Source: Candidatus Aminicenantales bacterium
GTDB lineage: Bacteria; Acidobacteriota; Aminicenantia; Aminicenantales; Saccharicenantaceae
Direction of reading: 5' to 3'
DNA length: 44,348 bases
Assembly: GCA_049512315.1 (NCBI GenBank)
Contig: JBEKXF010000026.1
Coordinates: 1 to 44,348, forward strand
A model generated the notes under the pieces. It saw nothing but the letters and a program-made list of their open reading frames with translations, had not been told where the DNA came from and did not search any database. Below, one piece after another: positions 1 through 41,819 of this stretch. A program made the translations under genes and the position numbers. Each line of letters starts with the position of its first letter. Within the stretch, counting starts at the first letter, position 1.

Positions 1-65
1 GGCGAAGGGAATACAATCGCTTCAGGCCGCATAGCTCCTTAGGCTATAGGCCGCCGGCTCCGGAG

Positions 66-121
66 GCATATTTGGCTGGAAAATTCACTCAAGGGCTGGT
101 ACATTGATCGGGGGCGGGTCA
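66..121 (+). mobile_element. IS3/IS407-like terminal repeat (right end of recurrent miniature element), degenerate
   Basis: ctggaaaattcactcaagggctggtacattgatcgggggcgggtca resembles copies at 6808, 27413, 29298, 41773; reverse complement begins TGACCCGCCCCC, an IS3-family-like tip. Confidence 0.5.
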
Positions 122-6616: not shown

Positions 6617-6854
6617 TGACCATTCTAGGGCCGAACTAAGTACTGTTATGGATCAGGGCCGGTTTGGCCTGGGATAAAAAAAGCCCCCCTGGTCAGGCGG
6701 GGCTTTTGGTCCGGTCGGCCTACTCCTCTTTCTGCTCCGGCCTCGGATGGATGAAGCGGCGGGCGAGCGTCACCGGGTGCTTGGCGGCCACCCGCTCGGC
6801 GTACTTGCTTGAAAATCTCACTTCAGGGGTGGCAAATTGAGCGCGGCCAGGCAA
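6617..6854 (+). mobile_element. Miniature element: degenerate left tip, terminator, reversed gene tail (copy B), right IS3-like end
   Basis: tgacc tip at 6617, hairpin 6676-6708, minus-strand SKYAERVAAKHPVTLARRFIHPRPEQKEE* at 6720-6809, then ttgaaaatctcacttcaggggtgg. Confidence 0.6.
6676..6708. terminator. Bidirectional intrinsic terminator
   Basis: aaaaaaagcccc...ggggctttt GC stem flanked by A and T tracts. Confidence 0.7.
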
Positions 6855-20743: not shown

Positions 20744-20747
20744 TTTT

Positions 20748-20936
20748 GGCAGACTCCTCCCCGTGTAACAGCCATGTCACAAAAAATGCTTAAACGCGCT
20801 TAATCCTGACTAAAGGTGCGTAAAGGAAAACAAAACAATTCCCCCTGGAAATTGGGTTTTCCCCATATGGCCAGGAGGGTGGAGCGTTGGACTCCGGATC
20901 CAAAATTCGAAGGTTTGAATCCTCTCTGGCATGCCA
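20748..20936 (+). repeat. att-like direct repeat: arm region plus degenerate tRNA-Arg(CCG) 3' fragment
   Basis: Near-identical to 21737-21925 (period 989 bp); tRNA part 20880-20936. Confidence 0.9.
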
Positions 20937-21047
20937 TTCTTTTACAGCTACCTCACCCATCGGGACCTCATCACCCCGACCCTGATGTTGACAGGATGGT
21001 TCATTCGCGTCCATAATAATATTATCAAGTTTGAGGGAAGGTTTGGA

Positions 21048-21626
21048 ATGAAAAATACAGGTACAAGTTTCCTTTTTATCCCCCTGATTCTCATGAGCGT
21101 CGTGTTGGCTCCGAATTGCGCGACGATCATTCAACGGAGCATGCAAAGAATCCCGGTGACGTCTTCTCCCGTTGGCGCCGCGGTCACTGTCGACGGCCAG
21201 AAACAAGGTGTGACTCCGCTCGATATATATCTGTCCAGGCAGGAGAAGGGTCAGGTTATTCGGATCGAATCCCCAGGATATAATTCCTTCGAAATCCACG
21301 TTAAGCGCAGGCTGTCGGGAGCCCCGATCCTCGGTAACGTCCTCCTCGGAGGGCTCGCCGGACTTAGCGCGACTGCGATCTATGGGCTGAGTCGCGGGAT
21401 TTTTTGGGCCAATAACAGAACCGCAAATTTGATCTTTGTCGTCGGTGGCGTAGTGTCCTTTGGAGTCTGTATGCTCATCGATGCCGCCGGTAAAGGATAC
21501 ACGCTGACGCCGACCGAACTCACGGTGACTTTGACTAAGGTCGACGGGCCGCCCCGAGTCGATATGGTTCTCGTCGACGCCGGCGACTTTCGAAACGTCA
21601 AGTGGATCCGAATCCGTAAAGATTGA
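21048..21626 (+). CDS. PEGA-domain (lipo)protein
   Basis: Signal ending in C; VTSSPVGAAVTVDG..GVTP PEGA motif; two hydrophobic segments. Confidence 0.8.
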   Translation: MKNTGTSFLFIPLILMSVVLAPNCATIIQRSMQRIPVTSSPVGAAVTVDGQKQGVTPLDIYLSRQEKGQVIRIESPGYNSFEIHVKRRLSGAPILGNVLLGGLAGLSATAIYGLSRGIFWANNRTANLIFVVGGVVSFGVCMLIDAAGKGYTLTPTELTVTLTKVDGPPRVDMVLVDAGDFRNVKWIRIRKD

Positions 21627-21736: not shown

Positions 21737-21925
21737 GGCAGACCTCTCCTCGTGTCACAGCCATGTCACAAAAAATGCTTAAACGCGCTTAATTCTGACT
21801 AAAGGTGCGTAAAGGAAAACAAGACATTTCCCCCTGGAAATCGGGTTTTCCCCATATGCCCAGAAGGGTAGAGCGTTGGACTCCGGATCCAAAGGTCGGA
21901 GGTTCGAATCCTCTCAGGCACGCCA
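21737..21925 (+). repeat. att-like direct repeat: arm region plus tRNA-Arg(CCG) 3' fragment
   Basis: TGTCACA x2 at 11-bp spacing followed by the tRNA 3' part. Confidence 0.9.
21869..21925 (+). tRNA. tRNA-Arg(CCG) 3' fragment (5'-truncated)
   Basis: Anticodon arm ttgga-ctCCGga-tccaa, T-arm with GGTTCGAATCC, acceptor strand ending CCA; the 5' acceptor strand is absent. Confidence 0.85.
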
Positions 21926-22221
21926 TCGATTTTCCCCCGAGAAACTCGAGAAGATTCCGCCAAATCGGGATCATAAAGCCCCGAATCCGATATGAGCTTG
22001 AATGAGGGGGAATTAGCACCAGATAGCCCCAGACACGATAAGAATCTTGAGCCTCCATTTTTTCGGATCCCGGACTTTCCCGGCTCTCCAGGATCCGGCG
22101 TTTTCAGTCCATTTTGGCACGCCACAGTCACACGGGCGGCACACGGGGAACGGATGGTCGGGGAGTTGCTTTTTATCTTAAATTAATATTTAATTATGGC
22201 ATCTGCGAATAGGAGGGAGAA

Positions 22222-23542: not shown

Positions 23543-23740
23543 AAAAAATTGAGCAGAGATTGAGCAAACTCTTGCTCAAAAGAGCTCAGTCTAGCCTAAA
23601 CGTGATAAAACCATCAAGATCGTTAAATGCAAGAAAAATAGGCCGGGTGCGGTCCAACAGGGGAGAATCAGTCGCTGCTGATTTCTTCTGAGATCGTTTT
23701 TGAAGTCCGGAGGGATCACCGGATCCCTCACCCTCCCGTC
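23543..23740 (+). repeat. att-like direct repeat: arm region plus tRNA-Sec 5' half
   Basis: Aligns with 27129-27327 (period about 3586 bp). Confidence 0.85.
23699..23737 (-). tRNA. selC: tRNA-Sec(UCA) 5' half, truncated at the end of the anticodon loop
   Basis: GGGAGGGT-GA-GGGATC-CGGT-GATCCC-T-CCGGA-CTTCAAA fits selC geometry (8-nt acceptor strand, 6-bp D stem, 4-nt D loop, UCA anticodon). Confidence 0.8.
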
Positions 23741-23817
23741 GGAGGGATGATGGTATTGCGTCTCAGAACTAGTGTCAAGGACCGATGTCATCTGCCGCCA
23801 TTCGTCCCAAGCTCGGA

Positions 23818-23847
23818 TTGACTTCCCGCCCATCCCTCTGATAATCT
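23818..23847 (+). promoter_or_regulatory. Kinase promoter
   Basis: TTGACTtcccgcccatccctctgaTAATCT. Confidence 0.7.
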
Positions 23848-23875
23848 GAGCCCAAGCTACAGAAGGGGAACTCGC

Positions 23876-26800
23876 TTGGCCAACAAATGCCCGACCTGTC
23901 ATTCCGACAATCCTGAGACTCTGAAATTCTGCGGGGAGTGCGGCACCCAGCTCCTTCCGCCCCAAAACCATCCTCCGGCCATGACGGAAACCCTTCAGAC
24001 GCCCGTCCACGAGCTCACCTCGGGCTCCACCTTCGCCGGCCGCTACCAGGTGATCGAAGAGCTGGGCCACGGCGGCATGGGCCGGGTCTATAAGGTCTTC
24101 GACACAGACATCAAGGAGAAGATCGCCCTCAAGCTCCTGCGGCCCGAGATCGCGCTCGACAAAGAGACCGTCGAACGCTTCTCGAACGAGCTCAAGCTCG
24201 CCCGGAAGATCAGCCAACGCAACGTCTGCCGGATGTTCGACCTCGGTAAGGCCGAAGGCACGACCTTCATTACCATGGAGTTCGTGCCGGGCGAGGACTT
24301 AAAGAAGTTTATCCGGAAGACGGGCCAGCTCGGGGCGGGCCGAACCGTCTCGATTGCGAAGCAAGTATGCGAGGGATTGGCGGAGGCCCACCACTTCGGG
24401 GTTGTCCATCGCGACCTGAAGCCCCAGAACATCATGGTGGACGAGGACGGGAACGCCCGGATCATGGACTTCGGCATCGCCCGTTCCATCAAGGCTAAAG
24501 GAATCACCGGCGCCGGGGTGATGATCGGGACGCCGGAGTACATGTCGCCGGAGCAGGTCGAGGGGAAGGAGGTTGACCAGCGCTCGGATATCTATTCGCT
24601 GGGGGTCATCCTCTTCGAGATGGTGACGGGCCATGTGCCGTTCGAGGGCGACACGCCTTTTACCATTGGCGTGAAGCACAAGAGCGAGCGGCCCCGGAAC
24701 CCGCGCGAGCTTAATTCCCAGCTTCCCGAGGACCTTAGCCGGGTCATCCTCCGCTGCCTGGAGAAGGATAAAGCCAAGCGCTATCAAACGGCGGGGGAAT
24801 TGCGGGCCGACCTCGAAAAGGTCGAGCAGGGCCTGCCGACGACCGAGCGCGTTATCGCTCCCAAGAAGTCTTTCAGTTCCCGGGAGATCACCGTTAAGTT
24901 CAACCTACGAAAGCTCGCCGTCCCTTTAACAGCCTTCATCGTCCTGGCCGCCGCGGCCGTCATTCTTGTGAAATTCATCCCTCACAAAAAGGCGCCTGCC
25001 GCGCCCAAGATCGAGAACTCCATAGCCGTCATCAGCTTTGAGAATCATACGGGAGATAAAGCCTTCGACTATTTACAAAAGGCCATTCCTGACCTTCTGA
25101 TCACCAGCCTGGAGCGGGAAAACAAGCTCTATGTGGCCACCTGGGAACGGATGCAAGACCTTCTTGAACAGATGGGAAAAAAGAATGTCGAAGTCATCGA
25201 CAGGCCACTCGGTTTTGAACTATGCCGAAAAGAAGGAATCAAGACGATCGTTTTGGGCAGCTACATCAAGGCCGGAGAGACCTTTGCCACAGATGTGAAA
25301 GTGTTGGACGTGGACACCAAGAAACTGCTCAGGAGCTCCAGCTCAAAGGGAGAGGGCGTTTCCAGCATCATCAATAACCAGATCGATGAACTGACCAAGG
25401 AGATCTCCGAGGGCGTAGGCCTGGCGGGAAAAGGCGTTGAACCCGCAGAGAGGTCGATCGCTGATGTCACGACCAGTTCGATGGAAGCTTACAGATATTA
25501 TTTGGAGGGGAGGGAGAATTACCAAAAGACCTATGCCGTTGATGCGCGGATCGCTTTAGAAAAGGCCGTTAAGCTTGATCCGGATTTTGCCATGGCTTAT
25601 TACTTACTCTCTTTGTCAAATGGTTACCTCGGAAATGATGAAGCCCAGGTCGCCGCCCTTAAAAAGGCCAAAGCTTTGTCGCTCAAGGCAACCGAAAAGG
25701 AAAGGCTCTATATCGAGGCGTATTATGCCGACCTCGTAGAAAAAGATTCTGAAAAATGTTTGCGCATCCTCCGGCAGATGGTCGAAAAATATCCCAAGGC
25801 AAAAGGAATATTTTTTAATCTGGGTATTCATTACGTTAATAAGGAAGCCTATGATGAAGCCATAATAGAGTATAATAGAGCCCTGGAGCTCGATCCCAAC
25901 TATGGAATGGCCCATAATAACTTAGGTTTTGTCTATATCGCTACAGGGGATTTTTCAAAGGCGGTTGAGCATCTTCAAAAATACGTGTCCTTGCGTCCGG
26001 GTGAGGCCAATCCGCTTGATTCTCTGGCTGAGGCCTATTTTGATATGGGCCAGCTGGATGAGGCCATAGCGAATTACAAAGAAGCGTTAAAGATAAAATC
26101 TGATTTTTTTAATTCCTGTTTTAGTGTCGGGTACACTTATGCCTTGAAGGCGGACTATGCTGAGGCGCTGAGATGGATGGATAAATTCACCGCCATGGCT
26201 CCTTCTCCGGGGACAAAAAGGGCGGGGTATCTATGGAAAGGGTTTTGCCGCTTCTGGTCGGGGAGTTTGAAGGACGGCGATTTTTACTTTCGTGAAGCCG
26301 AAGAAACGTCAGAACCGGGGTATGTTTGGGGGCGACCGTTCATAAACTGGGTCAAGGCCTTCATTTATTACGACCGGGGAGAGCTGGATCAAAGCCGCAG
26401 GTCTAATGAAGCCTGGCTTAACGATTTTATTAAAGTTTATCCTGAAGACAAATTACACTATCAGGAAGTCTATAAATTCCTATCGGGGCTATTAGAATTA
26501 AAAGCCGGGCATATGGATTCAGCCAAGAATATATTATCAGAGATGAAATCACTCTTTATAAAGATGCCGCCCTGGCGGAAAGAATGGGTGTCGTTCTATA
26601 TCAATTTCCTAAGTGCCGAGTTGGCGATAAAAGCCGGATCCCCCGAAAAGGCTATCGCGGTTTTAAAGGAACAAACACCCTTACGCCCACCAACCCTTAG
26701 TTTTCAAGATTCAACGATGTGGTATAACCTGCCCATCATGAAGGACGTCTTGCCCCGGGCGTATGAGCAGAAAGGCGACATAGACGGAGCCATTGCTGAA

Positions 26801-27016
26801 TATGAGCGGCTGATCACCTTTAACCCCAAGAACCTCTCGCGCTATCTCATCCATCCCAAATACCATTACCGGCTGGCTAAGCTTTACGAACAGAAAGGCC
26901 TGAAGGCGAAAGCGGTCGAGCAATACCAGCGCTTCCTCGACCTCTGGAAGGACGCCGACCCCGGCCTGCCAGAGGTTGCGGATGCTCGGAAGCGGCTGGC
27001 CGGTCTTCAGAATTGA
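23876..27016 (+). CDS. Zinc-ribbon Ser/Thr protein kinase with TM, TolB-N-like domain and TPRs (K4)
   Basis: TTG start; kinase motifs; SIAVISFEN; TPRs; [15 protein letters not shown] tail. Confidence 0.95.
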
Positions 27017-27128
27017 TATTGGCGGCTTCGCCCTCCCCGTTGCCTCGACGTCAGTGCAAGGGTAGGATTGGGCCTCGATTCTCCCCAACATAAAGGCGGG
27101 CCACCCCACCATAATTGTCATAGGTCGA

Positions 27129-27327
27129 AAAAAATTGCGCAGAGATTGTGCAGACTCCTGCACAAAATAGCTCAGTCTAGCCTAAACGTGATAAAACCAT
27201 CAAGATCTGTAAATGCAAGAAAAACAAGCCGGATGCGGTCCAACAGGGGAGAATCCACCAGTGCCAATTTCCGCCGGGATCGTTTTTGAAGTCCGGAAGG
27301 CCCACCGGGAACCTTGACCCTCCCGTC
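27129..27327 (+). repeat. att-like direct repeat: arm region plus tRNA-Sec 5' half
   Basis: Aligns with 23543-23740. Confidence 0.85.
27285..27324 (-). tRNA. selC: tRNA-Sec(UCA) 5' half, second allele
   Basis: GGGAGGGT-CA-AGGTTC-CCGGT-GGGCCT-T-CCGGA-CTTCAAA. Confidence 0.75.
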
Positions 27328-27372
27328 TGTAGCGGCTCCAATGCTTTAAAATTTCACTCCACAGATAGTACA

Positions 27373-27459
27373 GGGACTTTATCCTTGAAAAATGGTCCAT
27401 CCATAATGTGAGCTTGAAAATCTCACTTCAGAGGTGGTACGTTGAGCTAGGGCAGGTCA
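27373..27459. mobile_element. About 90-bp palindromic MITE-like unit (two IS3-like ends)
   Basis: Homologous to 41729-41819; ends ggcaggtca. Confidence 0.6.
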
Positions 27460-27706: not shown

Positions 27707-28279
27707 TTATTTCTTTATCTTCTTCCCTTCCGAAAATGCATCGCCCAAGTATTTACCAATACCATAATAGGTGCGGTTTGCCGGATCAAAGATCATCGGT
27801 TTTATCTTCCCGATGTCAGGCGCTCCGTCTTTCCCTAGCACCGCCTCATCGGCCTTTACATCCTTGATCTCGCCGATAAAGAGCGTATGTGATCCTAATT
27901 TTACAACTTGGATTACGGAGCATTCCAAAATAAATGGGAACTCCTTAACATAAGGGGCATCCACATGGTCGCTTTTTACAGGCGTAAGCTTCGTAGTGGC
28001 AAACTTATCCTCTGTCCTGCCTGAAACAATCCCGAAGTAATCAGCTTCTTTGATAAATTTCTCTGAAGGGATACTTATCGTGAAGGCCTTCCTTGCTATG
28101 ATATTGCCATAGGTATAAGTAGCTTCCCTGATGGAGATTCCGATACAGGGAGGATGTGAACAACAAATACCACCCCAAGCAACGACCATTGCATTCGGCC
28201 TTCCGGATTTATCGTATGATCCTACGACAAAAACAGGCGTTGGAAAAACAGTGGTTTTCGCTCCGATAGGCTTCTTCAT
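27707..28279 (-). CDS. Flavin reductase family protein (flavoredoxin-like)
   Basis: [36 protein letters not shown]. Confidence 0.9.
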
Positions 28280-28522
28280 GACCTGCCGTCGCTCAATGTA
28301 CCACCTCGGAATTGAGATTTTCAAGCCTGACGACCTCTGTAGTGGATGCTTCATATCCATAAGGTCCCTCAAAGAGTTCAGTTCTGGGCATGCTCCGTAC
28401 CTCGTGCTGGGAGAAGCGTGGAAAATGCGCTAGAGGGCGCGAGAGAGGCGGAGAAGGGGAATTTCTGTTCTGGGGCGCATCGGTATTCCAGGGGCACATG
28501 GCTAAACCCGGGCCCAGTTGCC

Positions 28523-29239: not shown

Positions 29240-29344
29240 ATGAACCCGGTCGCGCAGCGTCGCGGGGCGCTTGGCGGCGGCGCGGGCGGCGTACTTGCTT
29301 GAAAATCTTGCTTCAGAGGTGTTACATTTAGCGGAGGCAGGTTA
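29240..29344 (+). mobile_element. Miniature-element remnant: reversed gene tail (copy C) fused to right IS3-like end
   Basis: Minus-strand SKYAARAAAKRPATL; junction gtacttgcttgaaaatc identical to 6801. Confidence 0.65.
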
Positions 29345-29376
29345 CTCACAGTCCACTAATGGAAGGGAGAGTTTCC

Positions 29377-30429
29377 ATGAAGATTTCGGGTTTGCACCGT
29401 TTTGCGATTTGCGCGTCTTTTCTATTGCTTGCCACTGTGGCTCTTGCAGGTCCATCGGTGGTCAATTATCACCTGATTAAGAAAATTCCTCTCAGCGCGG
29501 CACCGGGTGGGAAGGAGTATTTTGACTATATCACGATTGACCCTGCAATGCGCCGTATCTACCTCTCGCACGGCACCGAGGTTAAGGTGGTTGATGCCGA
29601 TAATTATGCCGTGTTGGGCACCATCTCTGGCTTGGAACGATGCCATGGGATCGCGTTAGTCAAGGACCTTGGCAAGGGATTTATCACTGACGGTGACCCG
29701 GGCAAGGTGGTCATTTTCGATATTGCGACCTTAAAAGTTACTGGTGAGGTCAAAGCCGAACCCGATGCAGACGCTATCATCTATGATCCGGCGTCGAAGC
29801 GCATATTTTCGTTCAACGGAAACTCTAAAGACGCGACGGTTATCGATCCTGCCAAGGGAACCGTCGTGAAGACTATCCCCTTGGGCGGTGGTCCGGAGAA
29901 CGCCGTCGCCGATGGCAAAGGAATTGTTTACAACAACAATGAAGAAACGAACGAGGTCGTGGCAATCGATTCCGGAGCACTCACGATCAAGGCACGGTGG
30001 CCGGTTGCGCCGGCCGGAGCACCTACAGCAATGGCAATGGACAGGGCGCACCGGCGGCTATTCTCTGCAGGCCGCAACCCCAAGTTCCTCGTCGTCATGA
30101 ATGCCGACAACGGCAAAGTCATCCAATCATTCCCGATCAGCGGCGGTGTTGATGCCATTGTCTACGAGCCAGAGACCGGGCTCATTTTTGCTTCGACGCG
30201 TGAGGGCATGGTCCACATCTTCCACGAAGACTCGCCCGACAAGTATAGTGAGTCCCAGACGGTTAAGACCGAGGTCGGGGCCAAAACGATGGCACTCGAT
30301 CCCAAGACTCACAACGTCTTCCTGACCACATCGGATTTTGGTCCGCCTCCCGCTCCCACCCCGGATCGCCCCCATCCGAATCCGGCCGCGATCCCGGGAA
30401 CGTTCCGCCTGCTAGTTTACGGACGCTGA
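29377..30429 (+). CDS. Secreted YncE/YVTN-like beta-propeller protein
   Basis: Signal peptide; FDYITID, repeated propeller blades, GAKTMALDP, PGTFRLLVY. Confidence 0.85.
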   Translation: MKISGLHRFAICASFLLLATVALAGPSVVNYHLIKKIPLSAAPGGKEYFDYITIDPAMRRIYLSHGTEVKVVDADNYAVLGTISGLERCHGIALVKDLGKGFITDGDPGKVVIFDIATLKVTGEVKAEPDADAIIYDPASKRIFSFNGNSKDATVIDPAKGTVVKTIPLGGGPENAVADGKGIVYNNNEETNEVVAIDSGALTIKARWPVAPAGAPTAMAMDRAHRRLFSAGRNPKFLVVMNADNGKVIQSFPISGGVDAIVYEPETGLIFASTREGMVHIFHEDSPDKYSESQTVKTEVGAKTMALDPKTHNVFLTTSDFGPPPAPTPDRPHPNPAAIPGTFRLLVYGR

Positions 30430-36862: not shown

Positions 36863-36909
36863 TGGACTCCGGATCTAAACGTCGGAGGTTCGAATCCTCT
36901 CAGGCACGC
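36863..36909 (+). tRNA. tRNA-Arg(CCG) 3' fragment
   Basis: tggactccggatctaaacgtcggaggttcgaatcctctcaggcacgc. Confidence 0.8.
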
Positions 36910-37925: not shown

Positions 37926-37968
37926 GACTCCGGATCCAAAGGTCGGAGGTTCGAATCCTCTCAGGCAC
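37926..37968 (+). tRNA. tRNA-Arg(CCG) 3' fragment
   Basis: gactccggatccaaaggtcggaggttcgaatcctctcaggcac, identical to the corresponding part of 21869-21925. Confidence 0.85.
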
Positions 37969-39117: not shown

Positions 39118-39155
39118 ACTCCGGATCCAAAGGTCGGAAATCCGAATCCTCTCAG
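39118..39155 (+). tRNA. Degenerate tRNA-Arg(CCG) 3' fragment
   Basis: actccggatccaaaggtcggaaatccgaatcctctcag. Confidence 0.7.
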
Positions 39156-41728: not shown

Positions 41729-41819
41729 GGGACCCCATCCCTTAAAAATGACCCAGGCATGATGTGAGTTTTCTTGAAAATCTCACTTCAGAGGTGGTAT
41801 CTTGACGCGGGGTAGGTCA
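41729..41819. mobile_element. About 90-bp palindromic MITE-like unit
   Basis: Imperfect inverted arms around gtgagttttc-TT-gaaaatctcac; right tip ggtaggtca. Confidence 0.65.

Follow-up and report, generated by a model that had tools for sequence, protein, structure and literature searches.

The gene of selenocysteine tRNA (tRNA-Sec), selC, is a classical insertion hotspot of integrase-bearing pathogenicity islands in Enterobacteria, where the islands duplicate the 3′ end of selC and sit downstream of it. Here we analyze a locus in a 44,348-nucleotide stretch of DNA from a Candidatus Aminicenantales bacterium (contig JBEKXF010000026.1 of assembly GCA_049512315.1), which is referred to as the window; it is contig C26 of a 3.55-Mb draft genome (G000, the source genome), and positions are given on the window unless a contig is named. 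Two direct repeats, w1 and w2, bracket K4, the gene of a Ser/Thr kinase, and each contains a 5′ half of selC joined to the same piece of DNA, the arm. In contrast to the enterobacterial islands it is the 5′ half of selC that is duplicated, and the islands lie upstream of the gene. We interpret w1 and w2 as attL-type scars of islands that inserted into selC, and the K4 unit as a decayed unit, resembling a cis-mobilizable element (CIME), in a tandem accretion array, a reading to which we assign a probability of about 70%.

In Table 1 of the paper on the Islander database, 159 islands have a 5′ fragment of the target gene and 3760 a 3′ fragment, and tandem arrays number 125 (Hudson et al., 2015; PMC4383910). 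What is described there for the 5′-fragment islands, namely a tyrosine integrase, a crossover centered on the anticodon, a target regenerated by the island and a displaced fragment at the far end, appears to hold for our locus too. The differences are that the target is selC in uncultured Aminicenantes, that the integrase gene ends 9 bp before the start of the tRNA gene, and that many units have a selC promoter of their own and no integrase. Since Islander, as outlined there, requires an integrase for each island, integrase-less units would be filtered out of it; island finders that demand an integrase or seek only 3′ fragments will miss such arrays.

In the literature on integrative and conjugative elements, CIMEs have kept att sites on both sides and lost the genes for integration and transfer (Guedon et al., 2017; PMC5704250). 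The K4 unit likewise keeps sites and holds no recombinase, as in the CIMEs and the tandem accretion described there for ICESt1/ICESt3-type elements; unlike the K4 unit, which is known from its sequence only, those elements sit at the 3′ ends of genes and their cis-mobilization was shown experimentally. Islands that replace the 5′ end of a protein gene are reported in a study of dusA-specific integrases (Farrugia et al., 2015; PMC4482086). There too the element gives back to its target the 5′ end and with it the signals for expression, but it uses an unrelated family of integrases and a target that codes for a protein. In Dehalococcoides the single-copy small RNA gene ssrA is the target of site-specific islands (McMurdie et al., 2011; PMC3146451). 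In this respect they are like the islands at selC. The repeated part in Dehalococcoides is reportedly the 3′ end of ssrA.

A narrow literature search found no published description of the selC system analyzed here. The 5′ polarity and the stacking are already on record; new are the phylum and the unusually clear modules of promoter and half gene. The locus offers, from an uncultured phylum, a clean natural case of a rare polarity of integration into tRNA genes, in which the promoter and the first half of the tRNA must both come from the element.

Half-selC junctions on both sides of a kinase gene

The original prediction, made from the letters of the DNA, described repeats of about 200 bp, each with a minus-strand 5′ half of selC that stops at CTTCAAA and is joined to a common arm. 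A repeat search of the window and an alignment with selC (alignment A1) agree with this. The segments 23543–23722 and 27129–27308 are 86% identical over 180 nt, their extensions 23721–23740 and 27308–27327 are 85% identical, and the copies are spaced 3586–3587 nt apart; BLAST aligned w1 and w2 with 85% identity over 198–199 nt (E ~1e-59). On the minus strand the first 39–40 nt of each repeat resemble the acceptor strand, the D-arm, the 5′ strand of the anticodon stem and the anticodon loop CTTCAAA, and are followed by sequence that is not tRNA-like. Beyond the repeat ends as first delimited weak similarity adds about 50–60 nt, the arm totaling about 160–250 nt. Both repeats are junctions of the same kind, half followed by arm, and do not form a left and right pair. 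The D-stems of the two halves differ and, as had been noticed, both can pair (GGGATC/GATCCC; AGGTTC/GGGCCT with G-U pairs and a 5-nt loop).

ARAGORN found no tRNA gene in the window and Rfam no tRNA-Sec at its gathering score, which for the tRNA-Sec family RF01852 is 47 bits. The original prediction had made itself dependent on a covariance-model search, and at relaxed thresholds RF01852 did match both repeats, being the top match at 27247–27324 on the minus strand in w2 (24.2 bits, E 0.15) and at 23661–23737 on the minus strand in w1 (23.6 bits, E 0.21), although neither reached the gathering score. Scores of about 24 bits are as expected of a half gene; besides remaining below 47 bits, w1 and w2 have no 3′ strand of the anticodon stem, no long variable arm and no T-arm, and are not tRNA-Sec genes. 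That the start of the arm is a decayed 3′ half of selC, which would explain why Rfam aligns the scars end to end, was rejected: the local alignment score of 16 was equalled or exceeded in 795 of 2000 shuffles.

The half in w2 matches the real selC of G000 at 38 of 39 positions, apart from one inserted T. For w1 the figure is 32 of 39, as compared with 36 of 39 for the selC of the relatives G007 and G009 and 38 of 39 for a displaced half in G007. The supposition that the halves derive from two selC alleles has thus stood, w2 being of the type of G000 and w1 of a type present in G007, G009 and G074. In all three copies of G000 that have kept the half (w1, w2 and one on contig C17, see below), the homology to selC ends directly after CTTCAAA (A1).

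Public contigs of two runs (X1 and X3) span each of the four junctions of the K4 unit and match it at every base, and therefore the layout is not a mis-assembly. The joints listed for the public Logan contigs, which are uninformative on rare events, include none that skips K4 and, for the source strain, none that would result from excision or from a circle. Joints that appeared to lead back from the end of the unit to its beginning (27007/27120→23546/23549 and 27001→23816) were rejected, since they stem from records only about 90% alike or from the ends of paralogous kinase genes and not from the source strain. In a contig of another public run (X5; joint 23737→23545) a module of half and arm directly abuts the start of another arm; this contig consists of two scars back to back with no cargo, and belongs to a related population at most about 90–95% alike.

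An intact island at the selC gene

The real selC of G000 lies on contig C17 (C17:49494–49584, plus strand; RF01852, 74 bits), is called tRNA-SeC by ARAGORN and is the sole good tRNA-Sec gene of the genome. A second RF01852 match just at the gathering score (C37:4127–4215, minus strand, 47.1 bits), for which ARAGORN gives no tRNA-SeC call, is probably another long-arm tRNA; similar second matches of 49–52 bits occur in several relatives.

An open reading frame (ORF) for a tyrosine integrase of 500 amino acids (C17:47983–49485) ends 9 bp upstream of selC. The protein has an N-terminal HTH_17 domain, an Int_N/SAM-like domain and a Phage_integrase domain (2.9e-34), and scores 118.8 bits against PF00589 (curated cut-off 27.1), which makes it a tyrosine recombinase. 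Its translation, read by eye, contains RRGE, HDLRH and LLGH...Y (LLGHSTITMTMRY), which we take to be the catalytic residues R...HxxR...Y. Genes for AAA_25 and resolvase proteins adjoin it. About 45 kb upstream of selC and in the same orientation lies the third junction of half and arm (C17:4086–4290, plus strand), 93% identical to w2 and 87% to w1. The 45-kb stretch between holds accessory genes, among them genes for a Dak2 protein, sugar-phosphate isomerase-like proteins, an MFS transporter in two pieces, Kelch and arginase-family proteins, a TonB-dependent-receptor-like protein, a sulfatase and a C69 peptidase. The selC-targeting system that duplicates the 5′ half, as envisaged in the original prediction, is therefore present in the source genome, and the same layout is found in G003. 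The 95 nt to the left of the attL on C17 resemble the integrase tail that precedes selC (about 80% identity), and therefore an earlier island of the same kind once stood there.

The layout by which Islander recognizes such islands, an intact tRNA gene with a 5′ fragment of the same orientation upstream, occurs on C17 and in G003, G007, G009 and G043; the integrase that Islander also requires is present in the C17 island and absent from the K4 unit and the window. A census of tRNA fragments in G000 turned up almost exclusively 3′ fragments, selC being the only gene with several 5′ fragments. Altogether G000 has five arm copies (w1, w2 and one each on C17, C24 and C36). Those at C24:5992–6174, adjoining a GmrSD gene, and at C36:6370–6526, adjoining genes for Methyltransf_35, HATPase_c_3 and an N6/N4 DNA methylase, retain little or nothing of the selC half; with these defense-type neighbors they look like displaced left ends of islands.

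Proposed origin of the K4 unit

From these results we propose that one family of islands with a tyrosine integrase would cross over in the anticodon stem-loop of selC, each island bringing a 5′ half of its own, so that insertion would rebuild selC from the island-borne 5′ half and the resident 3′ half. With each insertion the old 5′ half would be pushed upstream, fused to the left arm of the island (attL), and attR would consist of the integrase tail, the 5′ half from the island and the resident 3′ half, the latter two forming the working gene. Repeated insertions and subsequent loss of the recombination genes would leave the junctions stacked upstream of selC. Orphaned modules of promoter and half gene would thereby accumulate as a readable record of past insertions, and single accessory genes, such as those of kinases and peptidases, would end up bracketed by selC scars.

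In the orientation of selC the order at the K4 unit is the flank (27459→27328), half and arm of w2 (27324→~27070), K4 in antisense, the K4 promoter, the selC promoter (23778→23750) and half and arm of w1 (23737→~23480). The unit would be made up of the arm on the w2 side, K4 with its own promoter, the selC promoter and the w1 half, which a later insertion would have severed from its 3′ half. K4 is the only gene between w1 and w2, and no recombinase domain was found in any of the 35 ORFs scanned in the window, those of the unit included. Because the unit contains no recombinase, we regard it as a decayed CIME-like unit that would no longer be an autonomous element. The original prediction saw in K4 and its promoter the cargo of a working 3.6-kb element; this found no support, since both flanks are of the attL type, the recombinase is missing and the junction is shared across genomes. 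What the unit has in common with CIMEs is a junction of half and arm on either side of a single gene. It differs from integron gene cassettes in that the window has no integrase and the sites between genes are half-arm junctions and not the imperfect palindromes of attC.

Upstream of the w1 half lies a sigma-70-like promoter (Table 1), which would be the promoter of selC carried along with the half. Its homologues precede the working selC in G015, G012, G009 and G043 and displaced halves in G002, G074 (both), G050 (both), G043, G052, G057, G059 and G062. Kinase promoter, selC promoter and half meet in the same way in G050, G074, G059, G072 and G063, and because of this recurrence w1 can be understood as the remainder of a formerly working selC, directly adjacent to a kinase gene, whose 5′ half was later cut off by an insertion. 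In G006 about 100 nt of a K4-type 5′ end are found at the same place beside the working selC (alignment A2). A shared junction of this kind would be more readily explained by inheritance of an old arrangement than by a recent move. w2, which has an extra T, an orthologous junction in G003 and, according to a promoter scan, no promoter-like site, is probably the older scar. The right part of the window can be assigned to the old upstream neighborhood of selC because the G006 orthologue of its DUF5074 gene is located directly upstream of an arm relic and selC and because the attL of G003 shares the left flank of w2 (80% identity over 330 nt, window 27130–27459).

At the DNA level K4 itself is 87% identical to genes in two other families of the order (84% in amino acids) and likewise 87% identical to a pseudogene, riddled with stop codons, on contig C11 of G003; the nearest gene in other genomes of its own genus reaches only about 45% amino acid identity. 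This suggests that K4 was transferred horizontally. In G014 the homology to K4 begins at the K4 promoter (23818), in the other orthologues at about 23995. K4 orthologues without the flanks had been named beforehand as evidence against the original prediction, and in part this is the case: the orthologues in G021, G026 and G014 and the pseudogene in G003 have no flanking selC halves or arms.

Arrays in related genomes

Two sets were compared, 31 genomes of relatives (G000 counted) and 87 genomes of the family, the relatives all being draft metagenome-assembled genomes (MAGs). In the first set selC (RF01852) is present in 24 genomes and the arm in 8; in the family 18 of the 87 have the arm, mostly upstream of selC and frequently in arrays (by genus: g1, 4 of 7 relatives; g3, 1 of 1; g6, 12 of 42; g5, 0 of 8; g7, 0 of 26). 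The cognate integrase (at least 85% identity) was found in only two family genomes, G000 and G003, the next-best homologues having at most 45% identity. G003, G006, G007, G009 and G043 have the arm and selC on one contig, the arm lying upstream and oriented like selC. In G003 the flank is followed by half and arm, a 20-kb island, an integrase gene 85% identical to that of C17 and then selC; in G006 the order is the DUF5074 orthologue, an arm relic, an S15 peptidase gene and selC. In G052 the array begins directly after selB-NYN, and in sister families selC directly follows selB (SelB domains in G019). The downstream flank of selC, with a Kelch-repeat gene, is common to G000, G003, G009 and G012, and the upstream side is variable.

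The junction is nearly always at the same place: in 21 full junctions, from 12 genomes that keep a complete half, the homology to selC ends within about 3 nt of the loop (sampled were G000, G003, G007, G009, G043, G050, G052, G055, G057, G059, G062, G063, G072 and G074). Pairs or triplets of junctions in one orientation, 1.5–3.6 kb apart, occur in G000, G002, G043, G050, G052 and G074. No integrase was found in the stretches between junctions of G050, G074, G043, G002 and G007, whose genes are given in Table 1.

Nine family genomes have a good selC; among them the mean identity is 86% for the 5′ halves (minimum 74%, 10 of 39 columns variable) and 96% for the 3′ halves (minimum 94%, 5 of 52 columns variable). 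This would fit repeated replacement of the 5′ half, and is not proof of it. Since the 5′ halves of relatives differ far more than their 3′ halves, half of tRNA-Sec can apparently be turned over by mobile DNA.

Two arm relics of different genera (L065 on contig C2 of G009 and L063 on contig C50 of G006) have the same internal deletion, which took most of the 5′ half, and keep the same remnant of an integrase tail. The relic in G009 is split by an insertion of about 1.4 kb, an insertion sequence (IS), with duplicated CACGTTT(T)GG. Distant relatives of the integrase (~30% identity, from Acidobacteriota) lie beside tRNA-Pro or tRNA-Arg genes in the usual convergent layout, and as far as these sequences go they give no sign that the 5′ polarity belongs to a wider clade of integrases.

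Several findings weigh against serial insertion and decay as the origin of these arrays. Serial insertion predicts the tail of an integrase gene upstream of each inner half, and what is found at w1 and at junctions of G074 (two), G050 (two), G043, G002, G052, G057, G059 and G062 is a selC promoter; either, therefore, promoter-bearing units without integrase were inserted as such, or homologous recombination between arms has rearranged the arrays. Between genera the arms are 88–93% identical as compared with 75% for the coding orthologue of K3, which is more than expected of neutral scars and would be unexplained if they were nothing but scars. The K4 unit does not have the left-arm motif pair of the integrase-bearing attP (in our reading of 23738–23880). 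The window contains neither a 3′ half of selC nor an integrase; C26 would continue in the direction of selC to C17, yet no overlap between ends of the two contigs was found, so that their contiguity cannot be demonstrated. C26 begins (window 1–110) inside the 3′ end of an IS-type transposase, as read by eye from its translation, and this probably explains the assembly break on the side expected to lead to selC. Finally, the relatives being draft MAGs, absences among them are weak evidence.

The compact units of one or two intact genes that recur in the family (K4 in G000, a K3-type kinase in G050 and G074, an S41 peptidase in G043, a C45-family gene in G002, an S15 peptidase in G006 and a beta-lactamase-family gene in G007) invite the alternative that they are non-autonomous mobile cassettes, for which the integrase of the island would act in trans and selC would be a capture site in the style of integrons. 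Circles, each of arm, one gene, selC promoter and 5′ half, would enter one by one at the anticodon loop of selC, and the array would grow at its tRNA-proximal end. Most inner halves have the selC promoter of their own that such a cassette would need, the 87% DNA identity of K4 to genes in other families suggests horizontal transfer, and between genera the arms are better conserved than coding genes. If this alternative were true, single-gene arrays would be built and the 5′ half of an essential tRNA continually swapped, which would explain the variability of that half. We nevertheless consider it unlikely, because only 2 of the 18 arm-bearing genomes have the cognate integrase, K4 orthologues elsewhere are without these flanks, the K4 unit has no left-arm motif pair, the units of G007 and G052 end in integrase-tail remnants and hence reflect the decay of larger islands, and the junction at the kinase promoter is common to several genera, as it would be under vertical descent.

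Alternatively, the main process behind the arrays could be homologous recombination or segmental duplication, inside one genome or from one genome to another, that involves the ~200-bp arms and the promoter-half modules, site-specific insertion having operated only initially. The arms do supply 150–250 nt of 83–93% homology, two of the five copies in G000 (C24 and C36) lie away from selC with the half mostly or wholly lost, and the region has visibly been reshuffled between relatives. An IS splits an arm of G009, and C26 starts in an IS. The copies within a genome, however, have diverged to 83–93% identity and have different half alleles and different cargo, which indicates separate origins, and the position of the junction is constant. 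This makes the explanation quite improbable, and we continue with that of islands inserted into selC and decayed.

Table 1. Features of the K4 unit and its surroundings in the window, and genes between junctions in relatives.
Genome	Feature	Position	Strand	Remarks
G000	w2, attL-type junction	27129..27327	−	Repeat search, relaxed Rfam, BLAST, alignment with selC
G000	w2, displaced selC 5′ half	27324→27285	−	One extra T in D-arm
G000	w2, arm	27284→27129	−	Fused after anticodon loop; weak similarity on to ~27070
G000	Flank left of w2	27328..27459		Upstream in selC orientation; conserved beside G003 attL; ends in dispersed 48-nt repeat
G000	w1, attL-type junction	23543..23740	−	Repeat search, relaxed Rfam, BLAST, alignments with selC
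G000	w1, displaced selC 5′ half	23737→23699	−	Different allele from w2
G000	w1, arm	23698→23543	−	Weak similarity on to ~23480
G000	selC promoter, sigma-70-like	23750..23778	−	TTGACA-17-TACCAT, 10/12 matches; ends 12 nt upstream of w1 half
G000	K4 promoter-like site	23818..23845	+	TTGACT-16-GATAAT; divergent from selC promoter
G000	K4	23876..27016	+	Intact Ser/Thr kinase, 1046 aa (zinc ribbon, Pkinase, TPR); antisense to selC halves
G000	Terminator-like hairpin and T-run, w1 arm	23642..23658	−	~80–105 nt past start of half
G000	Terminator-like hairpin and T-run, w2 arm	27228..27244	−	
G000	Distal arm motifs, w1	23549..23580	−	Two direct words TTTGYWCAA/TCTGCWCAA and one inverted TTGAGCAA
G000	Distal arm motifs, w2	27134..27166	−	Same motifs with substitutions
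G000	DUF5074 gene	29359..30429	+	G006 orthologue (93% aa, 88% DNA) just upstream of arm relic and selC
G050, G074	K3-type kinase (Pkinase and PD40)			Between junctions; antisense like K4
G043	S41 peptidase			Between junctions; then two unnamed genes before selC
G002	One C45-family gene			Between junctions
G007	Beta-lactamase-family gene			Between attL and selC; then integrase-tail remnant

Anatomy of the arm

At its far end the arm contains a 21-nt pair of words, TTTGYWCAATCTCTGCTCAAT, preceded by an inverted TTGAGCAA, and the same pair is found within the 3′ end of the integrase gene on C17. In the reconstructed attP the 21-nt pairs lie about 133 nt to the left and about 131 nt to the right of the presumed crossover. 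These distal motifs are candidate arm-type sites, to which the integrase might bind. A third copy of the arm motifs upstream of the integrase gene, which could explain the repeated clean loss of the integrase, was not found on C17.

Nearer to the half, about 80–105 nt past its start, all three copies of G000 that were scanned (w1, w2 and that on C17) have a terminator-like hairpin followed by a T-run, which may act as an insulator, stopping transcripts that start at the orphaned promoter and run through the half. Between half and hairpin lies the word GATTCTCCCC (e.g., window 23664–23673, minus strand), near-invariant over 21 aligned junctions. It can pair with GGGAGG, the 5′ strand of the acceptor, which accounts for the end-to-end alignment of the scars by Rfam. 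As the word hardly varies, the alignment of the junctions would be compatible with an RNA helix, with a site for a protein or with chance.

Promoter, 5′ half, about 45 nt and terminator could therefore also be looked upon as a module kept for a function, be it a small RNA of about 100 nt derived from tRNA-Sec or an insulator of promoter and terminator. w1 with its 10/12 promoter and its hairpin, the hairpins of all copies scanned, the pairing of the invariant word with the acceptor strand and the conservation of the arms between genera would agree with this. A conserved RNA structure of the arm found no support, however, when the 21 junctions were folded with RNAalifold: compensatory changes are confined to the D-stem, which comes from the tRNA, the acceptor-like helix is without variation, the changes in the helix of the terminator-like hairpin (columns 83–87/95–99) are mostly one-sided, and the covariation term is only −1.8 kcal/mol. 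Also, w2 has no promoter-like site. Among the explanations considered this is the least probable.

Other repeats in the window and the genome

The window contains five 3′ fragments of tRNA-Arg(CCG), extending from about the anticodon stem to CCA (20882–20936, 21869–21925, 36863–36909, 37926–37968 and 39118–39155, all on the plus strand); in the whole genome there are 25 such non-gene places on at least 14 contigs. Often they lie 25–150 nt from ORFs of kinases of 800–1050 amino acids (after K3 and K5, before K6), and the K4 orthologues in G014 and G026 also adjoin one. They could be scars of a second island family, of the 3′ type, or remnants copied along with kinase duplications.

A second pair of direct repeats of about 190 nt (20745–20937 and 21740–21930, plus strand, 91% identical) brackets an ORF with a PEGA domain (20931–21626). 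Each copy consists of a conserved arm of about 120–140 nt followed by tRNA-Arg(CCG) without only its first ~9–20 nt (Rfam tRNA, 37.6 bits, model positions 10–63). Near-full copies are present on C34, C24, C27, C39 and C14.

A dispersed 48-nt repeat that resembles repetitive extragenic palindromes occurs at 27412–27459, 28279–28326 (inverted), 29297–29342, 41773–41819 and 6807–6851 and has 36 BLAST matches in the genome. Two copies in inverted orientation bracket a flavin-reductase gene (27707–28372); in G003 a different piece of about 2 kb lies between its two copies of the repeat.

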